From an uncultured Bacteroidales bacterium (GTDB lineage Bacteria > Bacteroidota > Bacteroidia > Bacteroidales > FEN-979), in contig CAWDBP010000014.1 of assembly GCA_963800585.1 (NCBI GenBank), forward strand, positions 116,413-180,412: a stretch of DNA of 64,000 nt, given 5' to 3'. Below, piece after piece: positions 3,633 through 62,803 of this stretch (positions are counted from its first letter, which is position 1; the number at the start of each line of letters is the position of its first letter). The notes beneath the pieces are model-generated. The model was not told the origin of the DNA. It made no database searches and was given only the letters and a program-made list of their open reading frames with translations. The position numbers were made by a program, and so were the translations under genes.

Positions 3633-3688
3633 CTCACCACGTCACCATGTCACCACGTCACCACGTCACCATGTCACCAGTTCACCAC
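3633..3688 (-). repeat. 8-nt-period tandem array, TCACC/GGTGA family (array A, 7 units)
   Basis: Plus strand: ctcaccac gtcaccat gtcaccac gtcaccac gtcaccat gtcaccag ttcaccac. The GGTGA strand is the minus strand, which is the trxB coding strand. The array starts 2 nt after the trxB TGA. Confidence 0.95.
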
Positions 3689-3689
3689 T

Positions 3690-4625
3690 TCAGGAACTCA
3701 GAAAACGCTCAGCTTCGATTGCTGCCATACATCCGGTCCCTGCCGCAGTAATGGCCTGCCGGTAATAATGATCTTGCACGTCGCCGCAGGCAAACACGCC
3801 ATCAACGCTTGTGCGGGTCGAGCCGGGAACGGTTTCAATGTAACCCGTCTCACTCATTTCCACCTGGTCCCTGAAGACTTCTGAATTCGGAGTATGTCCT
3901 ATAGCCACGAAGAGGCCGGTAATTTCGAGTTTCCGGGTTTCCCCGGTTTTGACATTCTTGACTAGTAATCCATTAACACCAGAGTCATCGCCGAGAACTT
4001 CCTCAGGAACGCTGTCCCAGATCATCTCGATATTTGGCGTATTCACAACTTTATGCTGCATGGCCTTTGAAGCACGCAACTCATTCCGGCGATGGATCAT
4101 ATAAACTTTATTGCAAAGCTTGGCCAGGTAAGTGGCTTCCTCGGCAGCAGTATCACCTCCGCCAACAATTGCTACATCCTGTTTGCGGTAGAAAAAGCCA
4201 TCGCAGGTTGCACAGGCCGATACTCCCTGTCCCCTGAATTTATTTTCAGTTTCCAGTCCCAACCATTTGGCTGATGCGCCTGTTGCAATAATGACCGTCT
4301 CTGCAAGGATGGTTTTCCCGTCATCGGCCTCAATTTTAAAGGGTCTTATTGAGAAATCAACTTTTGTCACAATCCCAAACCTCACGTCAGTTCCAAACCG
4401 TTGTGCCTGTTTCTTCAGGTCCTCCATCAATTCAGGACCTTGAATGCCCTGTGGGTATCCGGGAAAATTATCCACATCGGTCGTGCTGGTCAGCTGCCCT
4501 CCTGGCTCCAATCCTTCGTATATCACGGGCTTCAGGTCGGCCCTGGCAGCATAAATGGCTGCGGTATAGCCCGCCGGTCCCGATCCGATAATAAGGCACC
4601 TTATATTTTCTGTTGTCACACTCAT
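3690..4625 (-). CDS. trxB: thioredoxin-disulfide reductase
   Basis: Intact 311-aa ORF with an FAD motif (GSGPAGYTAAIYAARA), the redox-active CATCDG, and an NADPH motif (VGGGDTAAEEA). Confidence 0.95.
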   Translation of the reverse strand: MSVTTENIRCLIIGSGPAGYTAAIYAARADLKPVIYEGLEPGGQLTSTTDVDNFPGYPQGIQGPELMEDLKKQAQRFGTDVRFGIVTKVDFSIRPFKIEADDGKTILAETVIIATGASAKWLGLETENKFRGQGVSACATCDGFFYRKQDVAIVGGGDTAAEEATYLAKLCNKVYMIHRRNELRASKAMQHKVVNTPNIEMIWDSVPEEVLGDDSGVNGLLVKNVKTGETRKLEITGLFVAIGHTPNSEVFRDQVEMSETGYIETVPGSTRTSVDGVFACGDVQDHYYRQAITAAGTGCMAAIEAERFLSS

Positions 4626-5358: not shown

Positions 5359-5395
5359 CCCAATACCTAATACCCAATACCTAATTCTTAATTAC
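5359..5395 (-). repeat. 7-8 nt tandem array CYAATAC (minus strand GTATTRG) overlapping the stop of the ELWxxDGT gene
   Basis: Plus strand: cccaatac ctaatac ccaatac ctaattc ttaattac. The gene's last codons (VIKN) and its TAG lie inside the array. Confidence 0.8.
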
Positions 5396-6991
5396 TTTTT
5401 TAGTGGTAATCGTTTGATTGTTGCTGATCATTCTTAGAATATAAACTCCTGACGGATGGTTGGTCAGATCGACGGTATTTATTGCATTTACCATAGTTTG
5501 ATGGTAAACCGGAAGACCGGTGATGTCAGAAATTTCTAATTGTGCGCCAGGAACTGACGCTGGAAGAACGACATTAAAGATCCCCTTGGTCGGATTTGGA
5601 TAAACTGACAGGTTTTCTTCTGTCAGGTGCGAAATGCCCGACGGGAACTCTGTATAGCGGCAAAGCTGATAGTCGGACCATAAGGTATATGCAGCCGCAA
5701 AATAAACTGCGTTGTTGAACGTCACCCATGCCTGCCAGGGATCAAAAGGAGTTCCCCCGGCGGTACCTGGGGGTGTGGGACAAACAGTTCCTGCGGCAGT
5801 ACCGTTTGTAGCAAACAGTTGTTCTTCATCGGAAATAGTGTCATACCCGGTCATTATCAATTTATCCTGGAATGAGAACAATTTCGCGGGATCAAGACCA
5901 TGAGCGAAACTGGTTACTTTGGAAGGAGTGTTGGCTACGCTGTCCATAACCCATAACTGGTTAGTATTTGAAAGTGAATCGTAGCCCGACATGTAAAGCT
6001 TATTCTTATGAACAGCCATCGATGTTGGCTGAAACCCGGAATAGGTACGGTTGGTATAGTCTGTTTTGACTGTTTTAGTTCCCGCAGTCGTTCCATCCGT
6101 TACCCATAACTGGAAATACGCACCGGTATCAGCTCCCATAAAGTACATTTTTGAATTATAAAGAGTAAAAGTACTCGGGTAAAATCCCACGTCACCCGTT
6201 ACATTAATATGGGTAAATTCCAAGGTTCCCCCGGCAGTTCCATCCGTAGCAAAAAGTTGGTTCTCATTTACTCCGTCAGTGGAATTGAAATAGACTTTAC
6301 CGTTATAGGCGAAAAAATAAGAAGAGTAAGCGTCACCTGTGGGGTTTAATCTTTTCAGCATTACGGTTCCCGCAGCAGTACCATCCGAAATCCAGAGCTG
6401 GGTTTGGTTTACGCCATCGTTTGCATTGAAATATATTTTCCCGCCATAGGAATACATATTGGAAATGCTTGCAGGGCCTGTAGAATTGATTGTTTTAACC
6501 AATGTTGTGCCGGCTGCAGTTCCATCCGTTTGCCAGAGCTGATCGTTGATTGGATTGGAATTTGTGTTGTCCCCAGCGAAATATACTTTGTTGTTCAAAA
6601 TCGCATAATTCTCAGAACTCACCGTAATATTGGCAATCGATGATGTCCCTACCGTAGTTCCGTCGCTCTTCCATAAATGGGTCCGGTTGTCGAAAATAAG
6701 CAGGTTGTTCAGTATAGTCAAATGTTCTAATGAAGGATATAGGAGCATCGAATCTATTTGCTTTACAGTGGTAACCCCGGCCGCTGAACCATCGGGGGTA
6801 ACCATCAAGTAATCGACAAACTGTTCGTCATTCGTGCCAAAAAAATAAAGTTTCCCGTTAAATACAGTTAAATTACTTGGATCGAGCCCATTAGTGCCAT
6901 AATAATTCATACTCGTAATCTTCTGTACATATTGTGATTCAACTGTGGTGCAAATCAGCAATACGAAAATCAATGTATAAATCTGTTTCAT
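5381..6991 (-). CDS. ELWxxDGT-repeat secreted protein with T9SS type A C-terminal sorting domain
   Basis: 536 aa with a signal peptide. It has at least 7 repeats of the (Q/H)LW.(S/T)DGT(A/T)(A/V)GT type (LWQTDGTAAGTTLVK, LWISDGTAAGTVML, LWVTDGTTAGTKTV). The C-terminus (LSVYPNPTKGIFNVVL...GVYILRM) is typical of the Por secretion CTD. Confidence 0.85.
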   Translation of the reverse strand: MKQIYTLIFVLLICTTVESQYVQKITSMNYYGTNGLDPSNLTVFNGKLYFFGTNDEQFVDYLMVTPDGSAAGVTTVKQIDSMLLYPSLEHLTILNNLLIFDNRTHLWKSDGTTVGTSSIANITVSSENYAILNNKVYFAGDNTNSNPINDQLWQTDGTAAGTTLVKTINSTGPASISNMYSYGGKIYFNANDGVNQTQLWISDGTAAGTVMLKRLNPTGDAYSSYFFAYNGKVYFNSTDGVNENQLFATDGTAGGTLEFTHINVTGDVGFYPSTFTLYNSKMYFMGADTGAYFQLWVTDGTTAGTKTVKTDYTNRTYSGFQPTSMAVHKNKLYMSGYDSLSNTNQLWVMDSVANTPSKVTSFAHGLDPAKLFSFQDKLIMTGYDTISDEEQLFATNGTAAGTVCPTPPGTAGGTPFDPWQAWVTFNNAVYFAAAYTLWSDYQLCRYTEFPSGISHLTEENLSVYPNPTKGIFNVVLPASVPGAQLEISDITGLPVYHQTMVNAINTVDLTNHPSGVYILRMISNNQTITTKKVIKN

Positions 6992-9062: not shown

Positions 9063-9072
9063 CTTTCTTTAG

Positions 9073-9146
9073 TCGGGGCGAGAAGACTCGAACTTCCGAC
9101 CCCTTGCACCCCATGCAAGTACGCTAGCCAACTGCGCCACGCCCCG
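9073..9146 (-). tRNA. tRNA-Pro: tRNA-Pro (anticodon GGG)
   Basis: Cloverleaf folded by hand over 74 nt. Acceptor stem is CGGGGCG/CGCCCCG, anticodon stem CTTGC/GCAAG, anticodon loop A-T-GGG-G-T, and T-arm GGAAG TTCGAGT CTTCT. No CCA is encoded. Confidence 0.9.
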
Positions 9147-9195: not shown

Positions 9196-9292
9196 TCACA
9201 ACATGCCCTCTCCCCTCCTCTCACCACGTCACCACATCACTAGTTCACTACCTCACCAGTTCACTACCTCACCACATCACCAGTTCACCACA
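9196..9292 (-). repeat. composite repeat: TCACAACATGCCCTC + CT-rich tract + TCACC octamer array (array B, 9 units)
   Basis: The 15-nt head (9196-9210) is identical to 11646-11660. The octamers at 9221-9292 are tcaccacg tcaccaca tcactagt tcactacc tcaccagt tcactacc tcaccaca tcaccagt tcaccaca. The tail cattttccgcgtcacgatactc is shared with 61589-61631. Confidence 0.9.
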
Positions 9293-9311
9293 TTTTCCGC
9301 GTCACGATACT

Positions 9312-9333
9312 CCCCTCCCTCTTGGGGGAGGGG
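9312..9333 (-). terminator. GC-rich hairpin just after the stop of the 9350-11566 gene (terminator-like, no U-tract)
   Basis: CCCCTCCC / GGGAGGGG stem read directly, 17 nt downstream of the TGA at 9350-9352. Confidence 0.4.
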
Positions 9334-9349
9334 CCGGGGGTGGGGTGCC

Positions 9350-11566
9350 TCACCTCACCAGCACCACCGTCCCATGCCTCTTGACAGTTACCGGATTTGC
9401 ACTCGACGGCACCACCTCCTGGTAGGTGATCATCCATGCATACGTCCCCGCCGGTGCCGGCCTGCCCTGCAGTTGCCCATTCCACCCGCTATGAAAGTCG
9501 GTCGTTTGAAAAACAAGCGCTCCCCACCGGTCATAGATAAGCATGGAAAAGCCGCTGACATTATCCGCAGTGCTGACAACCCTGAAGGAATCGTTCTCCC
9601 CGTCACCATTGGGAGAAAATGCAGTGGGGACAAATATTGTCGAATCACAGCTTTTTAATTCCACCGAATCGCTCCCTGTGCAAGCATGAACATCCGTCAC
9701 CGTCACCCGGTATATCCCCACATTGGTTGCAGTATAATACCGTCCGGTGCTGCCATCCTGCCACAGGTAAGAAGCAAAACCGGCCCCGGCATCCAGCTGA
9801 ATGGGATCGCCGGCACACAGAAATGGCTTATCCGTGAGGTTGACAACCGGAGGAGCGTAAACAAAAAGTGTCACGGGTAAAGATTCAACCGGGTTTTGAA
9901 CGGCACAGGTCACCGAGGAGTTTAACTGGCATTTGACGACATACCCCTCGGTGAGGCTGTTTGTAATATATACGGGTGAACTCCCCGATTGCACCGGGTT
10001 TCCGTCTTCAGTCCAGGTAAACACAGGTGAAGCGCCTTCATCGGTGGGATGTGCCGTAAACGTCACGACGGTCCCCGGGCAGAATGCCGTATCATCGGCC
10101 GTAATAGTCACACTTACCGTAACGGATGGAGTCACACTCACCGTCACGTCGGCACAGGTTGATACCCCGCAGTTATTTTCCCAGGCAGCATAATACGTGG
10201 TCGTAGTTGTGGGTGATGGGATCGTCAGGCTGTTTGTTGGCCCCGAACCGGCACCAACAAATGTCCCTCCGCAACTTCCGGTATACCAGTTCAGGGTGGC
10301 GCCTGAGCCTCCCGTTGCCGAAAGCGTAATGTTACCGGTATCGCTGGAACAAACAGTTTCATGATCACTGGTTGCAGATACCGGTGCTACGGGTAATACG
10401 CCGGAAACATGCGTAGCCGCAAAGGATGTTTCATTGTAAGCGCTTCCCCGGGCCCGGTTATAATTATTTCCAAAATCATAATCTTGAACATAACGATAAG
10501 CAAAAATTTCATAATAAAGTCCTGAGGGACAGGGAACAGATACCGTGTCGACATAGGTCAGGGTTAATGAATATTTAATAGTTGCGACAACAACCGATCC
10601 TCCGATCATATCCCCCGGAAGATAAGAAACACCGTCCGCAGGCACGCCAAAAACATTGACGGTGTTCCGCAAAATGAGATACCCCTCCGTCTGGTCGGAA
10701 GGATAAACATCAATCATGGCATTCCAGTTCAACGTTACGGGATCGTCAGCCGCAGTGACCGATCCGCTTACAGTCGGATTGTTCCAGGTAGGTTTTCGTA
10801 AACTTCTCCAGTAATCGGAATTTGCGGTGGCCGATGCCGAACATTTATTGGGTAAGCCTAAAGTCACTTGGGTCCCGCCGCCGGCGGAAGACCACGTTGA
10901 ACCATCCTGGGGAGCAAGATTGCCGTATTCATCAAGGTTTGCGCCCGGACAAACACTCACCGCCTCACCCGTGTCAACACTGCTGTTATAATTAAGCTTC
11001 GGCAGCGGAAGCTCATTGAACAAAGACCCCGGAACAGCCCCATGCCCCAGGGCATGAACAAAATTGCCGGAGGCATCCTGGAGAACCAAAAGACCACCGG
11101 TGGGATCAAAATTCAGCGTAGGCCCGTTCAAACCCGGTAGCGTACCGAATGAACCACCGGTAAATACAGGAAATAAAGCAATATCGTTAGCCGACTCCTC
11201 GATATATCCGCATCCTTTGGCTTCAGTTATCGAATGATTGCAGCACCGGGAATCAATAAGAATGATGGTCCCTGCCCGCATATGATTCCAGAAAACAGGA
11301 TCGCTGAATATAATGGCAGGCTCCCAGGCAGTTTGCGTAGCATTGGTATTCTGAAGCTTCCAGTTAACCATATTGGTGTTATCCTGCACCACAAGCAATT
11401 CCGTCCACTCATCCAGCGGCGAAGCCCCGACATAATAACCGCTGATCACCACAGCCGGCGTCTGCGGGAAAGCAGCCCCCACCCCGAAAAAGAAAAAGAG
11501 TAGAAAGAAAATAGCAAAGTTCTTCACGTTCACCCGGTATATAAATACCCGTTTATGTCGCAGCAT
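9350..11566 (-). CDS. large secreted protein with T9SS type B (gliding-motility-associated) C-terminal sorting domain
   Basis: The C-terminus (FVPTAFSPNGDGENDSFRV...YDRWGALVF...WNG...AGTYAW...GTVVLVR) matches the type B CTD. Ig-like Cys-containing repeats lie upstream. The start is set at MLRHKRVF...FFLLFFFFGVGAAFPQ (signal peptide), and a GTG at 11527 is an alternative. The listed ORF start at 11689 lies in repeat DNA. Confidence 0.8.
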   Translation of the reverse strand: MLRHKRVFIYRVNVKNFAIFFLLFFFFGVGAAFPQTPAVVISGYYVGASPLDEWTELLVVQDNTNMVNWKLQNTNATQTAWEPAIIFSDPVFWNHMRAGTIILIDSRCCNHSITEAKGCGYIEESANDIALFPVFTGGSFGTLPGLNGPTLNFDPTGGLLVLQDASGNFVHALGHGAVPGSLFNELPLPKLNYNSSVDTGEAVSVCPGANLDEYGNLAPQDGSTWSSAGGGTQVTLGLPNKCSASATANSDYWRSLRKPTWNNPTVSGSVTAADDPVTLNWNAMIDVYPSDQTEGYLILRNTVNVFGVPADGVSYLPGDMIGGSVVVATIKYSLTLTYVDTVSVPCPSGLYYEIFAYRYVQDYDFGNNYNRARGSAYNETSFAATHVSGVLPVAPVSATSDHETVCSSDTGNITLSATGGSGATLNWYTGSCGGTFVGAGSGPTNSLTIPSPTTTTTYYAAWENNCGVSTCADVTVSVTPSVTVSVTITADDTAFCPGTVVTFTAHPTDEGASPVFTWTEDGNPVQSGSSPVYITNSLTEGYVVKCQLNSSVTCAVQNPVESLPVTLFVYAPPVVNLTDKPFLCAGDPIQLDAGAGFASYLWQDGSTGRYYTATNVGIYRVTVTDVHACTGSDSVELKSCDSTIFVPTAFSPNGDGENDSFRVVSTADNVSGFSMLIYDRWGALVFQTTDFHSGWNGQLQGRPAPAGTYAWMITYQEVVPSSANPVTVKRHGTVVLVR

Positions 11567-11645: not shown

Positions 11646-11746
11646 TCACAACATGCCCTCCACCCTCTTGCCCTCTGCCCTCCATTCACCTCTCACTACT
11701 CACCTCTCACTAGTTCACCACCTCACCACGTCACTAGTTCACCACA
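11646..11746 (-). repeat. composite repeat: TCACAACATGCCCTC + CT-rich tract + TCACC array (array C, 8 units of 7-8 nt)
   Basis: Same head and architecture as 9196-9292, in direct orientation. The units are tcacctc tcactac tcacctc tcactagt tcaccacc tcaccacg tcactagt tcaccaca. Confidence 0.9.
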
Positions 11747-11782: not shown

Positions 11783-13906
11783 ATGAAAACCCCCTTCACC
11801 TTATTGATGATCCCTATCGCAATGATGAGCTGCAACCAAACCACAACAAAGCGTATAAACTACCCTGTGACCAAAAAGGTCGTGCAGGTAGATGATTATT
11901 TTGGAACAAAAGTAAGCGACCCTTACCGCTGGCTGGAAAACGACACTTCGGCCGAAACAAAGGCCTGGGCAAGAACCGAGCAGGATTTCACCGAGGCTTA
12001 CCTCTCAAAGATCCCCTTCAGGGATAAGATCATGAAACGCTATAAGGAAATATTGAACTACCCCAAGTACTTCGGTGCATTCAAGGCCGGCGATTACATC
12101 TTCTTCTCAAAGAATGACGGACTGCAGAACCAGTCGGTCTATTATTTCCGTAAAGGCCTCACCGGCGAAGACAAGGTATTCCTCGATCCAAACAAGCTCT
12201 CCAAAGATGGTTCCGTATCCGTCGGATTCGACGGCTTCTCAAATGACAAGAAATACCTGGCCTGGCATATTAACAACGGCGGAAGCGACTGGCAGACCAT
12301 TTATGTGACGGAAATTGCAACGCAAAAACAACTGGGAGATAAGCTGGAATGGATAAAATTTGGCGGCATCGCATGGAAAGGCAACGGATTTTATTACAGC
12401 CGCTACAATAAGCCCCCGAAGGGAATGGAGCTTTCCATGAAGAATGAAAATCAGAAGATATATTACCACAAGCTCGGCGACAGGCAGGAACAGGATCAAC
12501 TGGTTTATGAGGACAAGGCACACCCCCGGATGTTCAACGGTGTACAGGTAACGGAAGATGAACGGTATTTGCTGATCAGCAAATCTACCGGAACCGATGG
12601 CACGGAGATCTGGTACAAAAACCTGGCCAACGGGCAGAAGGATTTCAGGCTTCTCTTCCCCGGGTTTGAATTCAACTATGGTGTGATAGATAATGTTGGC
12701 GACAAATTCCTGGTGAACACCAATAATGGTGCCGGCAATTACCGGGTGATCCTCGTCGATCCCCTCCATCCCGAAAAGCAGAACTGGAAAGACATTGTTC
12801 CGGAAAAGCCCGAGAAACTGGAATCTTCCAACATGGTCGGTGGAAAACTCTTCGTGGGTTACCTGAAAGATGCTTCCACAAAGATCTACCAGTACAGCCC
12901 GGATGGCAGGCTCGATCATGAAGTGGCCCTTCCATCCATCGGTTCGGCATCGGCAATCGGAGGATACAAGGACGACACCTATGCATTCTACGACTTCTCC
13001 TCCTTCACCTATCCCCCTTCAGTCTTCCGTTATGATATTGCAACCGGTAAGTCGGAGATCTTTAAAAAAGCCGAGATCAAGGTCAACATCGACGATTTTG
13101 AGACCGAACAGGTATTCTATCCCAGCAAGGACGGAACGAAGATCCCTATGTTCCTGGTCCACAAAAAAGGCCTTAAGCTCGACGGCTCCCACCCCACCCT
13201 CCTCTATGCCTATGGCGGATTTAATGTCAGCTCTACCCCATACTTCAGCAATTCCAAGATCATCTTGTATGAGAACGATGGCATCTACGCCCTGGCCAAC
13301 ATCCGCGGAGGCGGGGAATATGGCGAGAAATGGCACAAGGCAGGAGAGCTGCTGAACAAGCAAAACTGCTTTGATGATTTTATCGCTGCCGCTGAATACC
13401 TCATCGACAAGAAATATACCAGCAAAGACAAGCTGGCCATAAACGGTGGCTCTAACGGCGGCCTGCTCATCGGCGCAGTCGAGACCCAGCGCCCCGACCT
13501 CTTCAAAGTCTGCTTCCCCGAAGTCGGCGTCATGGACATGCTCCGATTCCAGAAGTTTACCGTCGGATGGGGCTGGACCCGCGAATACGGATCGGCCGAC
13601 AGCGCTAAATATTTCCCCTACCTCTACAAATACTCACCCCTGCATAACATAAAAGACAGCATCGAATACCCCGCAACCTTCATCTTAACTGCGGATCATG
13701 ACGACCGCGTAGTCCCGGCCCACTCCTTCAAATTTGCCGCCACCATGCAGGAAAAACAAAAAGGCCCCAACCCCATCCTCATCCGCATAGAAATAAATCA
13801 GGGCCATGGCGCTTCGGGTTCGTCCCTGTCGCAGATCATCAAATCCGAAACCGACAAATGGGCCTTCATGTTCTACACCATGGGCATCACACCAACATAC
13901 AAATGA
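11783..13906 (+). CDS. prolyl oligopeptidase (S9A family serine peptidase)
   Basis: Intact 707-aa ORF. The N-terminus (YPVTKKV..VDDYFGTKVSDPYRWLEND) is typical of the beta-propeller start. The catalytic domain has GGSNGGLL (Ser) and ADHDDRVVP (Asp), plus a HGAS region. Confidence 0.95.
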   Translation: MKTPFTLLMIPIAMMSCNQTTTKRINYPVTKKVVQVDDYFGTKVSDPYRWLENDTSAETKAWARTEQDFTEAYLSKIPFRDKIMKRYKEILNYPKYFGAFKAGDYIFFSKNDGLQNQSVYYFRKGLTGEDKVFLDPNKLSKDGSVSVGFDGFSNDKKYLAWHINNGGSDWQTIYVTEIATQKQLGDKLEWIKFGGIAWKGNGFYYSRYNKPPKGMELSMKNENQKIYYHKLGDRQEQDQLVYEDKAHPRMFNGVQVTEDERYLLISKSTGTDGTEIWYKNLANGQKDFRLLFPGFEFNYGVIDNVGDKFLVNTNNGAGNYRVILVDPLHPEKQNWKDIVPEKPEKLESSNMVGGKLFVGYLKDASTKIYQYSPDGRLDHEVALPSIGSASAIGGYKDDTYAFYDFSSFTYPPSVFRYDIATGKSEIFKKAEIKVNIDDFETEQVFYPSKDGTKIPMFLVHKKGLKLDGSHPTLLYAYGGFNVSSTPYFSNSKIILYENDGIYALANIRGGGEYGEKWHKAGELLNKQNCFDDFIAAAEYLIDKKYTSKDKLAINGGSNGGLLIGAVETQRPDLFKVCFPEVGVMDMLRFQKFTVGWGWTREYGSADSAKYFPYLYKYSPLHNIKDSIEYPATFILTADHDDRVVPAHSFKFAATMQEKQKGPNPILIRIEINQGHGASGSSLSQIIKSETDKWAFMFYTMGITPTYK

Positions 13907-13971
13907 CGTGGTGAACTGGTGACGTGGTAAACTGGTGACGTGGTGAACTGGTGACGTGGTGAACTGGTGAG
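13904..13971 (+). repeat. 8-nt-period array, GGTGA orientation on plus strand (array D, 8.5 units)
   Basis: tgacgtgg tgaactgg tgacgtgg taaactgg tgacgtgg tgaactgg tgacgtgg tgaactgg tgag. The first TGA is the prolyl oligopeptidase stop codon. Confidence 0.95.
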
Positions 13972-14215: not shown

Positions 14216-14334
14216 TCACCACCTCACCAGTTCACTAGTTCACCACCTCACCAGTTCACTAGTTCACCACGTCACCAGTTCACTAGTTCACCACGTCACC
14301 ACTCACCAGTTCACCACGTCACTAGTTCACCACC
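14216..14334 (-). repeat. 8-nt-period array, TCACC on plus strand (array E, 15 units, with 24-nt higher-order repeat)
   Basis: (tcaccacc tcaccagt tcactagt) x2, then tcaccacg tcaccagt tcactagt tcaccacg tcaccac tcaccagt tcaccacg tcactagt tcaccacc. It is inverted relative to array D. Confidence 0.95.
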
Positions 14335-14442: not shown

Positions 14443-15814
14443 ATGCCGACAAATGAACTCGTATCTAAAGGCTACAGGATAATCCTGGCAGGTTTACTAT
14501 TTCTTTCCATTTCCAATAGTTCGCCGGGACAGGCAACCCGCGATACCCTCCCTTCCAAAGTCACATTGTCACAGTGCATTGCCTATGCCCTGGCACACCA
14601 GGCTTTGGTTAAACAGTCCATGCTCAATGAAGACATTACAAAAAGAAATATAAGAATTGCCTTGTCGGGCTGGTACCCCCAACTCGAATTTGATGCCGGT
14701 TTGCAGGATTATCTGCAGGCACCGATTGCCTATTATCCGAATGTGTTAAATCCTTCTTCCCCCATCCCTTATCAATCAACATCGAATTATGTTTCTCCGG
14801 CCATATTTTCCGCCAGCCAGACGCTGTACAGCACCAGTTTGCTGTTTGCTGCCAGAACTTCCAGACAACTGAAAAATCAGGCTTCGGAGAATACGGAAAA
14901 TACGAAGATCAATACTTACGTCGATGTGACTAAGGCCTTTTTCGATGTTTTATTGACGGAGCAGGAGCTCAATGTGCTGGATGAAGATATCGTCCGCCTG
15001 CAGCGCAATTACAAGGATGCCTACAGTCTATACCAGACTGGCCTGACCGACAAAATTGACTACCAGCGTACTGAGATTGCCCTCAGCAATGCCCAGGCAC
15101 AAAGACGAACGGCCGGGAATCGCTGAAAGCCAAGTATTCTGTGTTGAAACAACTGATGGGAGTGGTCCCTGAAAAGCAGCTCACGGTTTCCTATGATTCT
15201 TCAAGATATGAAAGTGAAATATTATACGATACGGCAAAAAACCTGGATTACAGCCAAACGTGTCGAATACAGGCAGATGCAGACTTCCCTGAACCTCCAG
15301 AACGCTGAGATCGGCTATTACCGGTGGTCGTTCATTCCCACCCTATCTGCTTATTATGACTATGAGCCGACGTTGCAGAATGACCAGTTCGCTGATCTGT
15401 ACAATAACATACTATCCAACCCAGGTGATCGGGTTGAAACTAACAATTCCACTGTTCCAGGGATTGAACAGGCTCGAGAACCTGAGCAAGGCGAAGCTCC
15501 AGTACAAGCAGACTCCAGCTTGGAATGGAGTACCTGAAAAGCGAGATCAGCAGTGAATATACCCACGCTCTTACGCGGCGTATGTGAGCAACCTGAATGA
15601 ACTGAGGATCGCGAAAAGAAATATCGGGATTGCAAAGGATATCTTTAACACGGTGAAGTTCCAGTATGATAAAGGGATCAAGGCATACCTCGAAGTCATA
15701 GTATCTGAAACTGACCTGCGAACTGCTGAACTTAATTATCTCAATGTGCTTTTCCGGGTCCTTTCCAGCAAGATGGACCTCGAAAAAGCGTTAGGAGATA
15801 TAAAAATCAATTGA
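14443..15814 (+). pseudogene. TolC-family outer membrane efflux protein (two frame breaks)
   Basis: ORFs 14443-15126, 15193-15537 and 15584-15814 join into one TolC-like protein (TLSQCIAYALAHQALVKQS..., ...LEVIVSETDLRTAELNYLNVLFRVLSSKMDLEKALG). Confidence 0.85.
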
Positions 15815-16997: not shown

Positions 16998-19900
16998 ATG
17001 ATTGCCGATACCTTCATAAAACGCCCCATCACCGCCATAGTAATCTCCCTGGTATTAGTCATTGTCGGCACCCTGGCTATACTTAACCTGCCTGTAAGCC
17101 AGTACCCCGATATTTCACCGCCCGTGGTAAGGGTCTCGAGCCAGTATGTGGGTGCCGACGCCACAACGGTCGAGCAAACCGTCACCACACCCATAGAATT
17201 GCAGGTGAATGGAGCTACCGGCATGAACTATATCCAGAGCACCAGCACAAATGACGGCAGCTCCTCGATAAATGTCTTTTTTGATGTGGGAACAAACATC
17301 GATGTGGCCGCTACCGACGTGCAGAACAGGGTGAATATCGCAACTCCCATTCTGCCCGACCTGGTGAAAAGACTGGGAGTCACGGTCCGCAAGCGTAACC
17401 CTAGCAGCATCATGAATGTGGCCATCTTCTCTCCCAATGGCACTCACAGTATTAGGTTCCTCGATAACTACACGAATATTTTCGTTAGGGATGCCCTGAT
17501 GAGGGTGAAGGGTGTTGGCGATATCTTCACCCGGACCGATGATTTCTCCATGCGTATCTGGCTTAAGCCCGATAAGATGGCAAGCCTCGGACTGACAGCC
17601 AATGAGGTTCTGAATGCCGTCCAGGAACAGAATGTACAGGTCGCTGCCGGCTCCATCGGCACTCCTCCGCAACCCTACACCCAGCCTTTTGAATACACGG
17701 TGATTGTCAATGGAAGACTGAGTACCGTGGATGATTTCAATAAAATTGTCGTCAGGTCAAATCCGGTTGACGGATCAATAGTTTATCTAAAGGACGTGGC
17801 GCGGGTTGAGTTGGGTAAATTCAATTATTCGGGGACTGCCTTTGTCGACAAGAAGCCTTCCTCATACATGATCATATTCCAGACGCCCGGCAGCAATGCC
17901 CTGGATGTTGCAGATGGTGTCTACAAAACGATGGCCAACCTCAGCAAATCTTTCCCCAAAGATGTGGCTTACGTGGTGCCTTTTGAATCTGTATCAATCA
18001 TAAAAGCGTCGATAAGCGAAGTTATAACAACCCTTCTTGAGGCGCTGGCACTGGTCGTGCTCGTGGTATTTATCTTCCTCCAGGACTGGCGTTCAACCGT
18101 CATCCCCGTACTTGCAATCCCGGTTTCCATCATAGCCACCTTCATTTTCTTTATCCCTCTTGGGTTTACCATCAATAAGCTTACACTCTTCGGATTTGTT
18201 CTTGCGATCGGGATCGTTGTTGACGACGCTATCATAGTGGTCGAAGCGGTGCAGCGTTACATCGAAGAGCAGCACCTCACCCCGAAAGAAGCTGCCTTCA
18301 AGGCAATGGCAGATATCTCCGGACCTGTGGTTGCCATTGCGCTTGTTCTTGCCGCCGTATTTGTCCCTGCCGGCTTCTTGCCCGGCATTGTCGGCAGACT
18401 CTATCAGCAATTTGCAATCACCATCGCCATCTCGGTCCTCATCTCCGCTTTTGTGGCCCTGTCGCTCACTCCTGCTTTGTGTTCTTTGTTCCTGAAACCG
18501 CATCATATCACTAAATCTTCAAAAGGACTGAACTACCTTTTCTACCATTTTGATAAATGGTTTACCCGCAGAACGGAGGGATATACGAAAAATGTCAGGC
18601 TGGCAATAAAGAATTCCCGCTATGTTGTCATCCTCCTGTTACTGGTGATCTTCGGAGCTTTTGTTATGCTTCGTAACAAGCCCACCGGGTTCATCCCAGT
18701 TGAAGATGAAGGTCGTTTATACATTACCTACGAGCTGCCCGAAGGTGCTTCAAATTCACGCTCCATTGATGTGATAAAGAAAATGATGGATATTCTCCTG
18801 GATATCAAGGGTGTAAGCCATTGTTCTGCCGTGGGAGGGCTGAATGTGGTCACGGGAGCCCTCAAATCCAACAGCGGCACGATCTTCTGCCAGTTAATCC
18901 CCTGGGACGACCGTAAAAGCAAGTCGGAACACATCTATGCGTTGATGGCCGAGATGCAGAAGAGGTTCGCAGCCATACGGAATGCCAATATTCTAGTCAT
19001 ACCTCCTCCTGCCATCCCGGGACTCGGGGCTACGGGCGGGTTCACCTTTGAGCTGCAGCAGCGCGAAAGCAATGATGATATCAGGGCCTTCGAACGAAAC
19101 GTGCGCACCTTCATGGCAGCCATCAACAAACGTCCTGAAATCGCAAGGGCCATAACCTTTTTCAATACCCGCACTCCCAACTATCAGCTCACCGTCGACC
19201 GCGATAAATGTAAAAAGATGGGCGTGAACCTTGCCGATGTCTTCAGCACCATCCAGACCTATCTCGGCAGTGCCTATATCAATGACTTTACCATATACAA
19301 CCGCAACTTCCGCGTCATCGCTCAGGCAGATACCCTCTACCGCAACGACATCGTCGACATGGATAAATATTATGTCCGTAACCAGCAGGGCACAATGCTT
19401 CCCTTAAGCTCCGTGATGAGCTATAAAGTCAGCGAAAGCGCCTCCATGCTCTCCCATTATAACCTCTACCGGATGGCCGAGTTCGTAGGCGATGCAAAAC
19501 CCGGGTACAGCTCTGGGCAGGCGCTCCAGGCTTTACAGGAAACCGCACAACAGGTGCTCCCCGCCGGCTATGGATATGAGTTTTCAGGCCTGAGCCGTGA
19601 AGAAACAAAAGCAGGAAACACTTCGATGTACGTTTTCATCCTGTCGATTCTGTTCGTCTTCCTCTTCCTCTCCGCCTTATATGAAAGCTGGACAGTCCCA
19701 TTCACAATCCTGCTCGGAGTTCCGCTTGCAGCTTTCGGGGCTATACTGGCACTGACGCTGATCCCAAGCCTGTCAAACAACGTTTACGCGCAAATAGGTT
19801 TGATAACATTGATCGGCCTCGCAGCCAAGAACTCGATCCTGATAGTCGAATTCGCCAAAGAGCGAGTCGACCGTGGCATCGAAGTGGTAGCGGCCACCAT

Positions 19901-20186
19901 CGAGGCTGTTCGCCTGAGGCTGCGTCCTATCCTGATGACCTCCTTTGCTTTCATCTTCGGAGTATCGCCATTGGTATTCGCCAGCGGAGCAGGCGCCGTC
20001 GCCCGTCAAACCATCGGATGGTCGGTCCTCGGTGGAATGCTCGCCGCCACAGCAATGGGAGTATTCATCATCCCGGTATTATTTATCCTCATAATCCGAG
20101 CCAGCTACGGCAGGAAAAAACTCGCCGAACTTCAGGAACAAAACAAACCCGCAGAAGACGTCCACCCGGAATACCTTGAGGAATAG
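16998..20186 (+). CDS. efflux RND transporter permease subunit (AcrB/MexB family)
   Basis: Intact 1062-aa ORF with a canonical N-terminus (FIKRPITAIVISLVLVIVGTLAILNLPVSQYPDISPP) and a 12-TM RND architecture. Confidence 0.95.
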   Translation: MIADTFIKRPITAIVISLVLVIVGTLAILNLPVSQYPDISPPVVRVSSQYVGADATTVEQTVTTPIELQVNGATGMNYIQSTSTNDGSSSINVFFDVGTNIDVAATDVQNRVNIATPILPDLVKRLGVTVRKRNPSSIMNVAIFSPNGTHSIRFLDNYTNIFVRDALMRVKGVGDIFTRTDDFSMRIWLKPDKMASLGLTANEVLNAVQEQNVQVAAGSIGTPPQPYTQPFEYTVIVNGRLSTVDDFNKIVVRSNPVDGSIVYLKDVARVELGKFNYSGTAFVDKKPSSYMIIFQTPGSNALDVADGVYKTMANLSKSFPKDVAYVVPFESVSIIKASISEVITTLLEALALVVLVVFIFLQDWRSTVIPVLAIPVSIIATFIFFIPLGFTINKLTLFGFVLAIGIVVDDAIIVVEAVQRYIEEQHLTPKEAAFKAMADISGPVVAIALVLAAVFVPAGFLPGIVGRLYQQFAITIAISVLISAFVALSLTPALCSLFLKPHHITKSSKGLNYLFYHFDKWFTRRTEGYTKNVRLAIKNSRYVVILLLLVIFGAFVMLRNKPTGFIPVEDEGRLYITYELPEGASNSRSIDVIKKMMDILLDIKGVSHCSAVGGLNVVTGALKSNSGTIFCQLIPWDDRKSKSEHIYALMAEMQKRFAAIRNANILVIPPPAIPGLGATGGFTFELQQRESNDDIRAFERNVRTFMAAINKRPEIARAITFFNTRTPNYQLTVDRDKCKKMGVNLADVFSTIQTYLGSAYINDFTIYNRNFRVIAQADTLYRNDIVDMDKYYVRNQQGTMLPLSSVMSYKVSESASMLSHYNLYRMAEFVGDAKPGYSSGQALQALQETAQQVLPAGYGYEFSGLSREETKAGNTSMYVFILSILFVFLFLSALYESWTVPFTILLGVPLAAFGAILALTLIPSLSNNVYAQIGLITLIGLAAKNSILIVEFAKERVDRGIEVVAATIEAVRLRLRPILMTSFAFIFGVSPLVFASGAGAVARQTIGWSVLGGMLAATAMGVFIIPVLFILIIRASYGRKKLAELQEQNKPAEDVHPEYLEE

Positions 20187-20213: not shown

Positions 20214-20264
20214 CTTTTACCATTTTACCACCTGCCTGCCGGAGCTAGGTTTTACCATTTTACC
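20214..20264 (-). repeat. composite repeat: TTTTACCA octamers flanking a CCTGCCTGCCG..AGG core (element J)
   Basis: cttttacca ttttacca cctgcctgccggagctagg ttttacca ttttacc. The minus strand (GGTAAAA) supplies the last codons (KVKW) and the TAA of the 20252-22066 gene. Confidence 0.9.
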
Positions 20265-22066
20265 TTTTGATCCTGTTGGTTCAAAAGTGGATTTGAATGT
20301 ACGTCCAGTCCGGTGGCATCCCTGATCTCCTTTACTTTTTCCTGGGCTGCAAGTGCCTCCGGATTCCACCGGATGGCCTCGTTAAAATAATACGATGCCA
20401 CATCATACCGGCGCAACCAGTTGTAAATATTCCCCAGGTGAATGTAAACCTCGTAAAATGACGGGGAATAAAGGATGGCCTGGTTATAATAATAAACGGC
20501 AGTATCAATATTCTGAATGCCTTGCATGGTAGCCCGCAGCTCATAAACATACCCCAGCCAAAACAAGGCGTCACCAAAGGTCGGGTGAATCGCAAGTGCC
20601 CGTTCTAAATCCTTCCGGGCTTCATTAATCTCGTTGGTTTTCTTCTGCTTGTCAGTTTCCGTGGATGCGTTCTGCAGGTAATGGCCTGCCATATGCAACT
20701 GGTTCTGGGCACTCGTCGCACCGGTTCTTATATCGGTCGAATAGAGCGTGAATTCATCCTTCCATGCCTTATTCCGGTTCACTGTCTTAAAGGAATAAAG
20801 TCCGGTAATAAGGAGAACCAGCGGGAAAATGATAATTACGGATTTCATAAAACCAACATTCATCCTGATTGGGGCTGAGAAATTAGTCCGTGTCACCTTT
20901 TCAAGGATCCACACAACAGCAATGCTGAATCCCAGGGAAGGGGCGAATAAAAAACGTTCGGCGAATATCCCCCCTCGAAGAAAAACGAAAGCAAGGGCAG
21001 GGATAAGAGTAATAATAAAAAATCCGATCGCAAAACCGAGACTGGATCTTTTCTGAACCTGTTTTATTCCCAGCCAGGTTAATAAACCGAACGCGACCAA
21101 TCCGAGCCAGGCAAGAGGACTGTCCCATTTTACCGCCGGCAGGTAATTGTAGGAATAGTCATAGCGTAAAGGGTCCGGATAAAAAAGTATCCTGAAAAAG
21201 AAGAGAAACAGCATGAAAAGACTGGAATATTTTAATTCAGGGTCATGGTAAGGGTAGTTCAGAATATCATCGGGGATCTTTGTCGTAACGGGTTCCAGCA
21301 GGATATTTTTTTGGATGTAGAACAGGACGATTACTGCTGCATAAGGCAACGACTTCTTTACCAGTTCAACGGTTTTTGTATGTCCCCGGTAGTACAGGAT
21401 TAAGGGAATAAGCAGGATGCCCATTATCGCGCTTTCCTTGGAAAGAAGCGCCAGGTAAAAGAAAAACAGGCTTAAATAAAGATAGCGTTTATTTTTCCGG
21501 TCGGAATAGTGTAACGCAAAATAACCCATCACCACCATGTTGAAGAAACTAAGCAGCTCATCACGGCTTTTTATATTCGCCACAACTTCCGTATGAACAG
21601 GAAAACTCGCGAAAAGCAAGGTGACAAATAAGGGGAATAGCGGGTTCTTCGAAGGAAACAATTTGCTTACCAGGAGAAAAACAAAAAATACGGTAAGCGC
21701 GTAAAGAAGCACATTATCCAGGTGGCTTACATGCGGGTTCAGCTTAAAAAATGCATTCTCAATTGCAAAGGTGATCAGTGGAAGAGGCCGGTAATACCCG
21801 AGTTTGAGTCCCGTAAAATGCCAGAAATCGATGGTCAGGAGTTTCGGTATCCCGCTCAATCCTTGCAGCACGAACCGGTTGCTGGTAATGGCAGCATAAT
21901 CGTCAAGCACATATCCATATCCGATAGTGTTCATGTACAACAAAAAACCAATCACCCCGCAAAACAAAGCCAGCCGGTAATTGACCGGATAAGTTACTTC
22001 AGGCGGTTTCAAGGTCTTCCCGGGTTTATGAATTACCGCCGGTTTTGAAAGTTTCTTCTGAGCCAT
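20252..22066 (-). CDS. polytopic membrane protein with C-terminal TPR repeats (GT-C / PMT-TMTC-like glycosyltransferase candidate)
   Basis: 604 aa. About 11 predicted TM helices follow a cytoplasmic N-terminus, with an acidic YVLDDYA motif in the first loop. The C-terminal part (about 150 aa) has TPR-like repeats (ALFWLGYVYEL..., AVYYYNQAILYSP..., ASYYFNEAIRWNP). Confidence 0.65.
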   Translation of the reverse strand: MAQKKLSKPAVIHKPGKTLKPPEVTYPVNYRLALFCGVIGFLLYMNTIGYGYVLDDYAAITSNRFVLQGLSGIPKLLTIDFWHFTGLKLGYYRPLPLITFAIENAFFKLNPHVSHLDNVLLYALTVFFVFLLVSKLFPSKNPLFPLFVTLLFASFPVHTEVVANIKSRDELLSFFNMVVMGYFALHYSDRKNKRYLYLSLFFFYLALLSKESAIMGILLIPLILYYRGHTKTVELVKKSLPYAAVIVLFYIQKNILLEPVTTKIPDDILNYPYHDPELKYSSLFMLFLFFFRILFYPDPLRYDYSYNYLPAVKWDSPLAWLGLVAFGLLTWLGIKQVQKRSSLGFAIGFFIITLIPALAFVFLRGGIFAERFLFAPSLGFSIAVVWILEKVTRTNFSAPIRMNVGFMKSVIIIFPLVLLITGLYSFKTVNRNKAWKDEFTLYSTDIRTGATSAQNQLHMAGHYLQNASTETDKQKKTNEINEARKDLERALAIHPTFGDALFWLGYVYELRATMQGIQNIDTAVYYYNQAILYSPSFYEVYIHLGNIYNWLRRYDVASYYFNEAIRWNPEALAAQEKVKEIRDATGLDVHSNPLLNQQDQKVKW

Positions 22067-22200
22067 AACATACTGAGGGTTAGGATATACCCCTGAAAAA
22101 ATTAAACACTATCTGCAACAAACAATCCATTGGGTAAAGTTAAAACTATTTAGAATCAAATGGTAAAACCTGTCTGCCGGTTTTCCTGTTTGATTCTTAT

Positions 22201-22208
22201 TACATTTG
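22201..22208 (+). promoter_or_regulatory. candidate -7 box (TAnnTTTG)
   Basis: TACATTTG, 20 nt upstream of the ATG at 22229 (MEHFVIG...). This supports 22229 over the listed ORF start at 22160. Confidence 0.5.
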
Positions 22209-22228
22209 CAGTAGATGTCTGTAAATTT

Positions 22229-23701: not shown

Positions 23702-23762
23702 GTCAACCATCTTTCTCTAAACCACAAATACGACAAACGAAATCATAAAGTAATCAAAGAAA

Positions 23763-23845
23763 TTTTACCATTTTACCATTTTACCATTTTACCATTTTAC
23801 CATCTTACCATCTTACCACTTGCCTGCCGTAGGCAGGTTTTACCA
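23763..23845 (-). repeat. composite repeat: TTTTACCA x5, TCTTACCA x2, CTTGCCTGCCGTAGGCAGG core (hairpin CCTGCC/GGCAGG), TTTTACCA (element I)
   Basis: Read directly. It has the same architecture and orientation as 20214-20264. The hairpin at 23823-23837 is followed by TTTT. Confidence 0.9.
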
Positions 23846-27311: not shown

Positions 27312-27326
27312 CAATTCACCAGTTAT

Positions 27327-49298: not shown

Positions 49299-49353
49299 CT
49301 CTATCTTCTATCTTCCATTCACCACTTACCACTCACCATTCACTATTCACCAT
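49299..49353 (-). repeat. degenerate 6-8 nt array of the TCACC family (array G)
   Basis: ttctatc ttccat tcaccact taccac tcaccat tcactat tcaccat. It ends 1 nt from the dnaK TAA (49354-49356). GGTGA lies on the dnaK coding strand. Confidence 0.8.
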
Positions 49354-62776: not shown

Positions 62777-62803
62777 GTAATTATTTGAGGAGGATGGAGA
62801 TCT

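Follow-up and report, generated by a model that had tools for sequence, protein, structure and literature searches.

Contingency loci of host-adapted pathogens carry repeats of 1-5 nt units in ORFs or promoters of surface and virulence genes and confer on/off switching. The arrays described here are likewise hypermutable tandem repeats in which slippage probably changes the unit number. In contrast, they lie behind stop codons or in the leaders of housekeeping genes (trxB, dnaK, mnmA, nuo), where a change in unit number would not shift a reading frame. The STRR heptamers of heterocystous cyanobacteria differ from the present arrays in both unit and host. STRR and the LSSR, which have units of 5-11 nt (Mrazek et al. 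2007, summarised in PMC4679880), resemble them in their sporadic phylogenetic spread, and slippage is thought to generate them. LSSR are also similar in being non-coding and in running head to tail for longer than chance. As summarised in PMC4679880, the surveys of LSSR and STRR describe no polarity relative to ORF boundaries such as is described here.

Two sets of heptamers are also among the closest known systems. The G-rich units GGGAATC of Xanthomonas and GGGGAYT of Nostoc are polar to ORFs (Rehm et al. 2015, PMC4692102). Their 5′ and 3′ distances from an ORF are 28 nt and 160 nt, compared with a median of 4 nt and about 86 nt here, in both cases irrespective of ORF orientation. There as here, the downstream arrays are on the coding strand, 0-50 nt from the stop or overlapping it, and the upstream arrays are on the non-coding strand; inverted pairs occur, and position is conserved between relatives while length and sequence vary (PMC4692102). 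The present arrays differ in unit (mostly the octamer GGTGANNN, with AGTGANNN and AGTTTATAA), in having G-runs of at most two and no canonical G4 motif, and in their host, a Bacteroidota lineage. Unlike the Xanthomonas and Nostoc repeats, their G-rich strand has stops in all frames and frequently provides the stop of the gene. Many unrelated families of 7-9 nt units, AT-rich ones included, also follow one rule in one genome.

TAACTGA direct repeats have been found in Beggiatoaceae, Cyanobacteria and some Bacteroidetes, and an S1, Csp or CsrA-like repeat-binding protein has been proposed for them (MacGregor 2015, PMC4679880). Their forward strand has stops in three frames and overlaps only the very end of ORFs, whereas the reverse strand lacks stops and can form part of an ORF in frame, as is the case here. 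They share with the present arrays a mostly intergenic location, strain variation by whole units and frequent compound heptamer regions (PMC4679880). The unit sequence differs, and so does the placement. TAACTGA mostly precedes start codons by 1-43 nt, with the stop-rich strand forward (PMC4679880), whereas here the strand rich in stop and start triplets is in sense in none of the ten arrays within 20 nt of a gene start.

Array D and the other arrays of the window

Array D, a GGTGA repeat of 8-nt units, starts on the stop codon of a prolyl oligopeptidase (POP) gene in the window, the 64-kb stretch of DNA that was analysed. The array is real and clearly non-random. It adds an example to a class of short tandem repeats already described in bacteria, in which the G-rich strand is directed away from the adjacent gene, and does not constitute a novel type of element. 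The arrays of the window are listed with the genes that they adjoin.

3634-3692, minus strand: array A, seven units, GGTGA in trxB sense (trxB 3690-4625, minus)
5362-5385, minus strand: (AGGTATT)3.4 on the sense strand, overlapping in register the TAG stop of gene 5381-6991 (minus)
9220-9291, minus strand: array B, about nine units, GGTGA in sense, 58-60 nt beyond the stop of gene 9350-11566 (minus)
9348-9370, minus strand: mini-array GTGGTGCTGGTGAGGTGAGG, holding the stop of gene 9350-11566
11654-11682: (TGCCCTC)4, directly preceding array C
11686-11745, minus strand: array C, units of 7 and 8 nt, C-rich strand in POP sense, 37 nt before the ATG at 11783
13904-13970, plus strand: array D, about eight units of CGTGGTGA/ACTGGTGA, G-rich strand on plus, detected by TRF
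14216-14332, minus strand: array E, roughly 15 units, with the C-rich strand (TCACC) on plus, 110 nt before the OEP gene start at 14443
20215-20268, minus strand: TGGTAAAA units, within which gene 20252-22066 (minus) terminates
23762-23818, minus strand: (ATTTTACC)7, 60 nt past the stop of gene 22160-23701 (plus), the C-rich strand lying in the sense of that gene
27309-27326, minus strand: mini-array ATAACTGGTGAATTGGTG of two units, adjoining the TAA of the carB-like ORF 27327-29867 (minus)
49315-49356, minus strand: array G, 7-nt units ATGGTGA, ATAGTGA and GTGGTAA, 1 nt beyond the TAA of dnaK and in register
61560-61627, minus strand: array H1 (61560-61590) and (GTGACGC)4 (61598-61627), both G-rich on mnmA sense and compound with H2
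61632-61662, minus strand: array H2, including the final codons and TAG stop of mnmA (61651-62739, minus)
62789-62862, plus strand: (GGAGGAC)9, its C-rich complement GTCCTCC on mnmA sense, 49 nt before the mnmA start

Both TRF and a chain search of TCAC at 7-9 nt spacing confirm tandem repetition, with 4-15 units in the TRF arrays. A periodic-pattern search at 7-nt spacing gives 9 matches against 0.31 expected. As in LSSR, units within the 5-11 nt range run head to tail for longer than chance. A CRISPR array is ruled out because the units are contiguous 7-8-mers without spacers, as opposed to repeats of about 23-48 nt with unique spacers. An Rfam scan matches only one tRNA and group II intron domains. 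A tRNA-Pro gene (9072-9146) lies on one side of array B, and a 36-nt hairpin element (9283-9349) lies between its other side and the stop of gene 9350-11566. Metatranscriptome runs yield only sparse contigs over the source organism, and one RNA contig covers array G plus the start of the next gene.

The earlier note had listed seven junctions between stop codons and arrays, and all seven are present in the sequence. The POP gene (11783-13906) ends TAC AAA TGA and continues into CGTGGTGA ACTGGTGA, its TGA (13904-13906) being the first triplet of array D. The TGA of trxB is followed by AG and TGGTGA, in register with array A, and the TAA of dnaK by A and TGGTGA. The mnmA gene ends AAT GTG GTG AAC TAG within array H2, gene 20252-22066 ends AAG GTA AAA TGG TAA, and the end of gene 9350-11566 reads GTG CTG GTG AGG TGA GG. 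At carB the TAA is indeed followed directly by ATAACTGGTGAATTGGTG, but the gene is ORF 27327-29867 and not ORF 16998-20186. It can also be read directly from the units that each carries TGA, TAG or TAA and that, 8 not being a multiple of 3, the GGTGA strand closes all three frames, as had been pointed out. Arrays can therefore supply the stop of a gene, and often do. The gene's stop keeps the register of the array's periodic stop triplet in 8 of 12 independent cases, and the MnmA tails ...KVVN*, ...KVVTW* and ...KVVNW* are array-encoded in several relatives.

Polarity relative to gene ends and starts

Simple greedy ORF calls are confounded because the TCACC strand is open and ORFs run through the arrays. 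They were replaced by flanks validated by codon usage and by loci with real gene calls. The wide sample comprises 295 GGTGA-type arrays from other genomes and metagenomes, with flanks validated by codon usage. A validated coding frame ends on the GGTGA-strand side in 43 cases and on the TCACC-strand side in 4 (p = 3e-9), and another 18 frames read straight through the array. A tally of coding flanks gives 82 on the 5′ side of the G strand versus 19 on the 3′ side. The second set consists of the window and five syntenic relatives with real gene calls, and covers all arrays with units of 7-9 nt. Of the 21 arrays no more than 20 nt from a gene end, 20 have more G than C on the sense strand. Of the 10 arrays equally near a gene start, 9 have more C than G on the sense strand, and in 9 start triplets are fewer there than on the antisense strand.

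The distances follow the same pattern. Measured from the G-rich strand, the median distance to an ORF is 4 nt on the 5′ side and 86.5 nt on the 3′ side, and the 5′ distance is the shorter one in 39 of 46 arrays (p = 1.8e-6). This is the polarity of the Xanthomonas and Nostoc repeats. Between co-directional genes, 28 of 41 arrays lie within -13 to +13 nt of the stop. Flanks without arrays have no comparable skew (21:26 after gene ends, 23:40 before gene starts). If arrays were placed uniformly in their own spacers, the chance of a start 0-3 nt from the stop would be P = 0.0085-0.125 per array, with a product of 1.3e-7 over five arrays. Both the orientation and the adjacency to stops that the earlier note proposed are thus general and statistically strong: in related sequence the ratio is far from 50:50, and arrays are in excess within a few nt of stop codons. 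Arrays C and E, which it treated as exceptions, are instead the start-codon half of the same rule, each with the C-rich strand, free of start codons, in sense before a start. The sole clear exception in the window is (ATTTTACC)7 at 23762-23818.

The proposal that stop-richness governs the orientation does not hold. G in excess of C on the sense strand predicts orientation 20:0, against 15:3 for the stop count. The (AGTTTATAA)n repeats have the same polarity for the unit and its complement, although the two differ by a single G/C per unit, contain the same stop and start triplets and have TAA on both strands. The GGGAATC unit is polar too, and on reading has no stop in any frame. These observations bear on the idea that arrays were selected as fail-safe stops, with the GGTGA strand closing all frames behind a gene to catch read-through or frameshifted ribosomes. 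Such a device would explain why every unit carries a stop triplet in a period that is not a multiple of 3, the 43:4 orientation, the 8 of 12 gene ends with in-register stops and the MnmA proteins that end on array stops in several relatives. It is nevertheless improbable. Besides the better prediction by G>C skew and the polarity of units lacking stop asymmetry, arrays of 60-115 nt far exceed what three frames need. The relatives L464 and L465 lack arrays A and D at the corresponding gene ends, and before start codons arrays of these families are turned the other way round. Transcription termination fares no better. An intrinsic-terminator scan found no terminator-like site in or next to the arrays and no excess over shuffles. 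For single arrays the folding energy is 0 to -17 kcal/mol and the z-scores are weak, and the signature of a GC-rich hairpin with a U-tract is absent, by which a terminator identity was rejected. The arrays are not dedicated stop or terminator devices.

In the window, seven of the eight TCACC-family arrays have TCACC on the plus strand. This would fit an effect of the replicating strand (GC skew or a Chi-like motif), in which the replichore sets the orientation and a link to genes is merely apparent, most genes running in the direction of replication. The E. coli Chi sequence GCTGGTGG is similar to (A/G)CTGGTGA. Yet arrays of opposite skew lie on the same strand within one spacer in L461 (6310-6356 versus 6388-6420) and in L465 (19542-19575 versus 19651-19681). 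The three arrays of L212 are oriented -, +, -, each in sense with its own genes, and array D is flipped, together with its gene, relative to the neighbouring arrays. The same-spacer pairs and the L212 arrays rule out a Chi-like or replichore identity as such, and a strand effect of any kind retains hardly any credibility. Rehm et al. likewise found no leading- or lagging-strand preference (PMC4692102).

The 5′ end of the G-rich strand adjoins gene ends and gene starts alike, and the polarity is thus independent of ORF orientation. This fits a process at the DNA level that is bounded by selection. G-rich non-B structures or R-loops might stall polymerases, and repair might then delete the 5′ flank until selection on the ORF halts the erosion; pausing of RNA polymerase on its way out of the ORF may be a further effect of such structures. 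In dog-1/FANCJ mutants of C. elegans, one-sided deletions arise 5′ of G4 motifs. The related heptamers form G-quadruplexes in vitro (PMC4692102). As the main cause, DNA structure is possible but unlikely: polarity is seen even in GGTGA units, whose G-runs reach only two, and in (AGTTTATAA)n, whose unit contains a single G; single arrays fold weakly, and none of the postulated deletions was observed directly.

Turnover and origin of the arrays

The arrays are gained and lost between relatives. Arrays A and D are absent from the orthologous gene ends in L465 and in L464, which is syntenic with 86% identity, and the array load differs between relatives. In the trxB-purL spacer the start-proximal 25 nt or so are conserved and the stop-proximal part has been replaced. 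The mnmA end has kept an array in six relatives at a conserved position and orientation, while the unit type varies and the number of units ranges from 3 to about 10. Such whole-unit length variation between related genomes is also characteristic of LSSR. The suggestion that arrays replaced ancestral C-termini is not borne out as a general rule. The POP tail ...ITP(I/T)YK is ancestral, and in MnmA the array encodes only the last 2-4 residues. In nuoL the C-rich strand is tolerated in frame inside the ORF. The 36-nt array there is exactly conserved between flanks of about 78% identity, as estimated from the alignment, which hints at constraint or conversion.

The reading that we prefer, and to which we give about even chances, is that the arrays are fast-evolving repeats generated by slippage, and that selection on translation signals filters where they are placed. 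On this reading array D and the related arrays are lineage-specific intergenic repeats of 7-9 nt units with fast turnover, which fill the spacers of a peat/soil Bacteroidota genome. As observed, the G-rich 5′ end is on an ORF boundary and the 3′ end toward non-coding DNA. Behind a gene the coding strand carries GGTGA with TGA/TAG and GTG, the gene often stopping on an in-register triplet of the array; ahead of a gene it is the C-rich strand without start triplets. For the mechanism we infer four steps. Replication slippage would create the arrays and alter their size. Recombination among arrays would then copy and homogenise them between loci. Purifying selection on translation signals would decide where they persist, and polarity at the DNA level, for example erosion of the flank 5′ of the G-rich strand, may add to this.

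The filter would act on the contents of the two strands. GTG/ATG, TGA/TAG and SD-like GGTGA/GGAGG abound on the G-rich strand, which probably would not be tolerated in sense near a start codon or inside an ORF. Pairing of SD-like GGUGA with the 3′ end of 16S rRNA is retained solely as a reason why this strand might be harmful in leaders. Behind a stop it would be harmless and self-terminating. The G-poor strand would be translationally inert, which would be why no other orientation is seen in leaders or in frame within ORFs. Such a filter would explain why the G-rich strand avoids start codons. By itself it does not explain why C-rich sense strands are rare directly behind stops (4 versus 17 among arrays not overlapping the stop). 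The polarity of (AGTTTATAA)n relative to its complement, despite the same stop and start triplets, also argues against it.

Identical 28-mers and shared flanks (AAAATGTG-[array], GTATCGTGACGC and GTTAAAAA) occur at several loci of the window, and some copying process would therefore be required. They might also mark mobile MITE- or REP-like elements that insert at stops, for example through TAG/TGA microhomology with the ACTAGTGACGTGGTGA unit. Such elements would agree with the recent gain of A and D and with L465, which reads AAA TAG TGA CCC at a site where the window carries an array. Array E is the inverted partner of D across a 245-nt core (long-range D/E pairing of -160.7 kcal/mol), and D, core and E together stand in place of about 70 nt of ancestral spacer, resembling an insertion bounded by inverted arrays. 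In another lineage, that of Hymenobacter, arrays form the arms of long palindromes. We regard a mobile element as quite unlikely, given that a search revealed neither a transposase nor a target-site duplication nor constant element ends. The core between D and E occurs in a single copy and has no relative in any fetched locus, and single arrays are not palindromic, as REP and MITE elements are. Many different unit families share the polarity, and the Xanthomonas GGGAATC unit, as read, offers no stop triplets for microhomology. Slippage and copying, the preferred origin, agree with the very large copy number seen in a peat metagenome, in which array depth is about 60 times the flank depth.

A role at the RNA level would assign a function to the same arrangement. 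The arrays, G-rich in 3′ UTRs and C-rich in 5′ leaders, could be platforms for a repeat-binding protein (S1, Csp or CsrA-like). Alternatively, C-rich tracts could load Rho onto any transcript entering an ORF from outside, or the arrays could pair with each other in cis or trans. Complementary families do lie behind stops and ahead of starts (GGTGA/TCACC and AGTTTATAA/ACTTTATAA), with one such pair in the nuoA-nuoB spacer of L465, and POP is flanked by C (5′, C-rich sense) and D (3′, G-rich sense). The conservation of position and orientation at the mnmA end in six relatives despite sequence turnover, and the RNA contig across array G and the next start, point the same way. The Xanthomonas repeats are mostly transcribed, but the same study found no expression effect (PMC4692102). 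Many unrelated unit families per genome speak against one specific binder. The range of 3 to about 10 units at one site and the presence or absence between close relatives weigh against a regulatory role as well. Octamer arrays built on composition-matched cores reach a frequency similar to that of the GGTGA core (52 versus 112, 40 and 21 loci). Regulation through RNA accordingly seems rather unlikely. An apparent conservation of TGGTGA across phyla was rejected as a sign of function, since the search pattern itself forced the core and composition-matched control cores were equally frequent in viral contigs.

A bolder form of this idea is a genome-wide directional code, in which transcripts leaving an ORF are tagged G-rich and those entering it (leader or antisense) are tagged C-rich and untranslatable. 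The tags might be Rho-loading or insulator tracts, or complementary 5′ and 3′ UTR sequences that pair in trans. We consider this a distinctly long shot. If it were true, G-rich fragments derived from 3′ UTRs would pair with C-rich leaders beside start codons, and the mechanism would be general and no G-quadruplex effect, since non-G4 and AT-rich units obey the rule.

Bearing on other repeats and on annotation

The polarity rule was based in 2015 on two G4-forming heptamers. In this Bacteroidota lineage it extends to three new settings: octamers unable to form a canonical G4, AT-rich 9-mers in which one G/C per unit is all that distinguishes the two strands, and spacers shared by many neighbouring unit families. 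This argues against a G-quadruplex cause and narrows the explanations. The arrays also matter in practice, as gene callers set stop codons inside them and assemblers break contigs there. The POP and trxB ends, with an array in the window and without one in L464, constitute natural pairs.

Polarity of arrays at gene boundaries

The arrays are almost certainly polar simple-sequence repeats. The stop codon of the prolyl oligopeptidase gene (POP) is the first TGA of array D, the GGTGA-type array under study. POP (11783-13906) encodes a product of 707 aa with the Pfam domains Peptidase_S9_N and Peptidase_S9. Array D has seven further family members in the window, which also contains TGGTAAAA arrays and several arrays of heptamer units. 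The host belongs to the Bacteroidota, as seen from the type IX secretion domains CHU_C and Por_Secre_tail, and comes from peat and soil metagenomes. Its nearest named relatives are MAGs labelled Bacteroidetes bacterium or Bacteroidales bacterium.

13904-13970: array D, about eight head-to-tail octamers CGTGGTGA/ACTGGTGA
23762-23818: (ATTTTACC)7, the only clear exception to the polarity rule in the window

In syntenic loci with real gene calls, obtained via MnmA and POP homologues, nearly every intergenic spacer of the lineage contains tandem arrays with units of 7-12 nt, which belong to many families. Within 20 nt of a gene end, G exceeds C on the sense strand in 20/21 arrays and C exceeds G in none, while at gene starts (<=20 nt) C exceeds G in 9/10; the loci are partly orthologous, so these counts are not fully independent, and gene starts in the window are ORF calls. 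ATG, GTG and TTG triplets are likewise fewer on the sense than on the antisense strand in 9/10 gene-start arrays. Non-array flanks have nothing comparable, with skews of 21:26 after ends and 23:40 before starts. The 5′ end of the G-rich strand has a median distance of 4 nt to an ORF boundary and the 3′ end one of 86.5 nt; the shorter distance is on the 5′ side for 39 of 46 arrays (p = 1.8e-6). Arrays C (ahead of POP) and E (the inverted partner of D), which the earlier note called exceptions, both obey the start-codon half of this rule. Orientation driven by the replichore was rejected, since arrays of opposite skew occur within one spacer and arrays flip together with genes.

The arrays are not terminators, as they lack a hairpin with a U-tract and fold weakly when single; metatranscriptome RNA over this organism is too sparse for reading transcript ends. 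Identity as a CRISPR array was rejected, and an Rfam search gave no match at the arrays. A REP or MITE element was rejected for this lineage, the inverted pair D/E enclosing a single-copy core; its predicted pairing energy is -160.7 kcal/mol.

Bacteroidota largely do without Shine-Dalgarno pairing, which makes (GGAGGAC)9 at 62789-62862 notable. On the + strand it amounts to nine Shine-Dalgarno-like GGAGG motifs in tandem, and its CCTCC complement points towards the start codon of mnmA at a distance of 49 nt. Several genes in the window are split into adjacent or overlapping ORFs on the same strand (262-3516, 14443-15537, 27327-31021 and others), among them purL (four pieces), carB (two), the OEP gene and a run at 39084-45393. 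In the syntenic relative L464, purL (1243 aa) and OEP (465 aa) are intact, which suggests assembly frameshift errors or pseudogenes in the window. The assembly apparently contains frameshifts, so isolated aberrant units (the 7-nt unit in E, for example) may be errors.

Stop codons and turnover at gene ends

Every array/stop junction listed in the earlier note proved correct on re-reading the window, with two amendments. The carB junction is real and belongs to ORF 27327-29867 rather than ORF 16998-20186; gene 9350-11566 has only a mini-array at its stop, the main array B lying 58-60 nt behind it. Random placement would rarely give such proximity to stops: if every array had a uniform distribution over its spacer, it would begin 0-3 nt from the stop with a probability of 0.0085-0.125, and the product for five arrays is 1.3e-7. 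Phasing each gene end/array junction on the stop codon shows that the stop keeps the register of the array's periodic stop triplet for 8 of the 12 independent gene ends (p = 5e-5); in the window these include trxB, POP, dnaK and the gene at 5381.

Ancestral C-termini were not generally replaced by arrays, a possibility also raised earlier. MnmA ends in ...KVVN*, ...KVVTW* or ...KVVNW* in several relatives, and its tail codons GTG GTG AAC TAG or GTG GTG ACN TGG TGA are array sequence; in MnmA only the last 2-4 residues are array-encoded. The POP tail ...ITP(I/T)YK is the ancestral form.

A GTGA-type stretch of 8-nt period runs from the last mnmA codons in 6/6 relatives (83-100% protein identity), with lengths from 3 to about 10 units and varying unit types (CGT x9 in L458, a AATAGCGA variant in L461). 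Position and orientation persist at this gene end while the sequence turns over. Array D is absent from the POP end in L464 (86% identity; AAA TAA TAG...) and L465 (83%; AAA TAG TGA CCC...), and the trxB array (A) is absent in L464; arrays D and A are therefore recent gains. In L463 (92%) a TAG, a 36-nt hairpin element and a GGTGA array stand in place of array D. The amount of arrays differs strongly among relatives, and in a peat metagenome the arrays are covered about 60 times as deeply as their flanks. Several window loci have an identical 28-mer and the same flanks in common, implying copying or homogenisation between loci. In the trxB-purL spacer the start-proximal ~25 nt are conserved and the stop-proximal part is replaced.

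The dispersed ~36-nt hairpin element CCCCACCCCCGGCCCCTCCCCCAAGAGGGAGGGG (stem CCCCTCCC/GGGAGGGG) occurs at window 9283-9349, L463 5405-5440, L458 8649-8688, L147 2735-2771 and three sites in L183. Where gene calls exist (window, L463, L458) the element is at most a few nt away from a stop codon; in two of these loci, the window and L463, it is followed by a GGTGA array. The direct upstream neighbour of POP is a T9SS-domain gene in the window and, in L463 (1689-3277; 92% identity), a tyrosine-integrase gene with a tRNA-like sequence, which may be an integrated element. A tRNA-Pro(GGG) gene (9072-9146) follows array B at a distance of ~75 nt on the same strand. The stop of the carB-like gene, with its two-unit GGTGA mini-array, is followed directly by a group II intron (- strand, 25304-27235), with an Rfam D1-D4 domain at 27021-27235, a domain V-type match at 25304-25378 and a 436-aa ORF (25383-26693) between them.

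Polarity beyond the window and its possible cause

Array-pattern scans of genome and metagenome contigs returned at least 239 loci, which span many phyla and GC contents of 0.28-0.75; genome-wide statistics rest on the relatives and these pattern-selected loci. The wide phylogenetic spread is ruled out as a sign of conserved function by the TRGTGA core forced in the search pattern and by composition-matched control cores, which viral contigs contain at similar frequency (52 loci vs 112, 40 and 21). Among the matches listed, 28 of 41 GGTGA-sense arrays between co-directional genes have the upstream stop within -13..+13 nt, and their distances to the downstream start are broad. With flanking frames validated by codon usage, a coding frame enters the 5′ boundary of the GGTGA strand in 43 cases and that of the TCACC strand in 22, of which 18 read through with the array in frame within the gene and only 4 are gene ends (among the matches listed). 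The orientation ratio is thus far from 50:50, as the earlier note expected (43 gene ends vs 4 among these matches, p = 3e-9).

Similar repeats have been described. Xanthomonas GGGAATC and Nostoc GGGGAYT repeats lie near the 5′ neighbouring ORF whatever its orientation (28 vs 160 nt); arrays behind a gene are on its coding strand and lie at the stop or overlap it, and those ahead of a gene are on its non-coding strand. Inverted pairs occur, array positions are conserved with varying length, and no function was found (Rehm et al. 2015, PMC4692102). For TAACTGA repeats, the stop-rich orientation can overlap an ORF only at its end, and the open orientation occurs inside ORFs (MacGregor 2015, PMC4679880). 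This likeness places the present arrays in a known class. Unlike the Xanthomonas and Nostoc repeats, the octamers here have G-runs of only 2. New are the polarity rule for such octamers, for AT-rich 9-mers that a single G/C per unit distinguishes from their complement, and for many unit families together, which argues against G-quadruplexes and also against stop codons as the cause.

The most likely mechanism overall, with about an even chance of being correct, is slippage and recombination with orientation filtered by selection on translation signals, which we infer as the cause of polarity. Slippage would make arrays and alter their size, recombination among them would spread and homogenise them, and purifying selection would determine the places in which either orientation persists. 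With its many GTG/ATG, TGA/TAG and SD-like GGTGA/GGAGG motifs, the G-rich strand would be barred in sense beside a start codon or within an ORF and harmless behind a stop. The G-poor strand would be translationally inert and tolerated in leaders and in frame within ORFs, as in nuoL. The conserved part of the trxB-purL spacer fits a functional start-proximal element that would restrict G-rich arrays to the stretch nearer the stop. Such selection does not fully explain the scarcity of C-rich-sense arrays behind stops or the polarity of AGTTTATAA, and for this reason a DNA-level polarity is a possible rival explanation, as is an RNA-level G-versus-C effect, e.g., Rho loading or UTR pairing.

Arrays within coding regions and in Hymenobacter

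The N-terminal part of a nuoL-like gene (L140 3111-3138, L231 11054-11081; gene identity read from the translation) includes an in-frame 36-nt array of (ACTGGTGA)4 type with its C-rich strand in sense. This array is 100% identical between these two diverged organisms, with flanks about three-quarters identical by eye, and L231 has an extra array where L140 has none. Heptamer arrays also occur within purL, (TCGTAAT)4 at window 3245-3273, with Pfam domains in one frame on both sides, and (CGTGACG)4 at L464 3684-3711. In Hymenobacter, four-unit GGTGA arrays are the outer arms of long, near-perfect palindromes dispersed across several species, [GGTGA x4]-GTTTGAYGTTC-GC-rich loop-GAACRTCAAAC-[TCACC x4] (L062 1488-1606, L096, L075, L101, L112, L117, L118, L120, L021, L032), with predicted folding energies of -80 to -109 kcal/mol for most.
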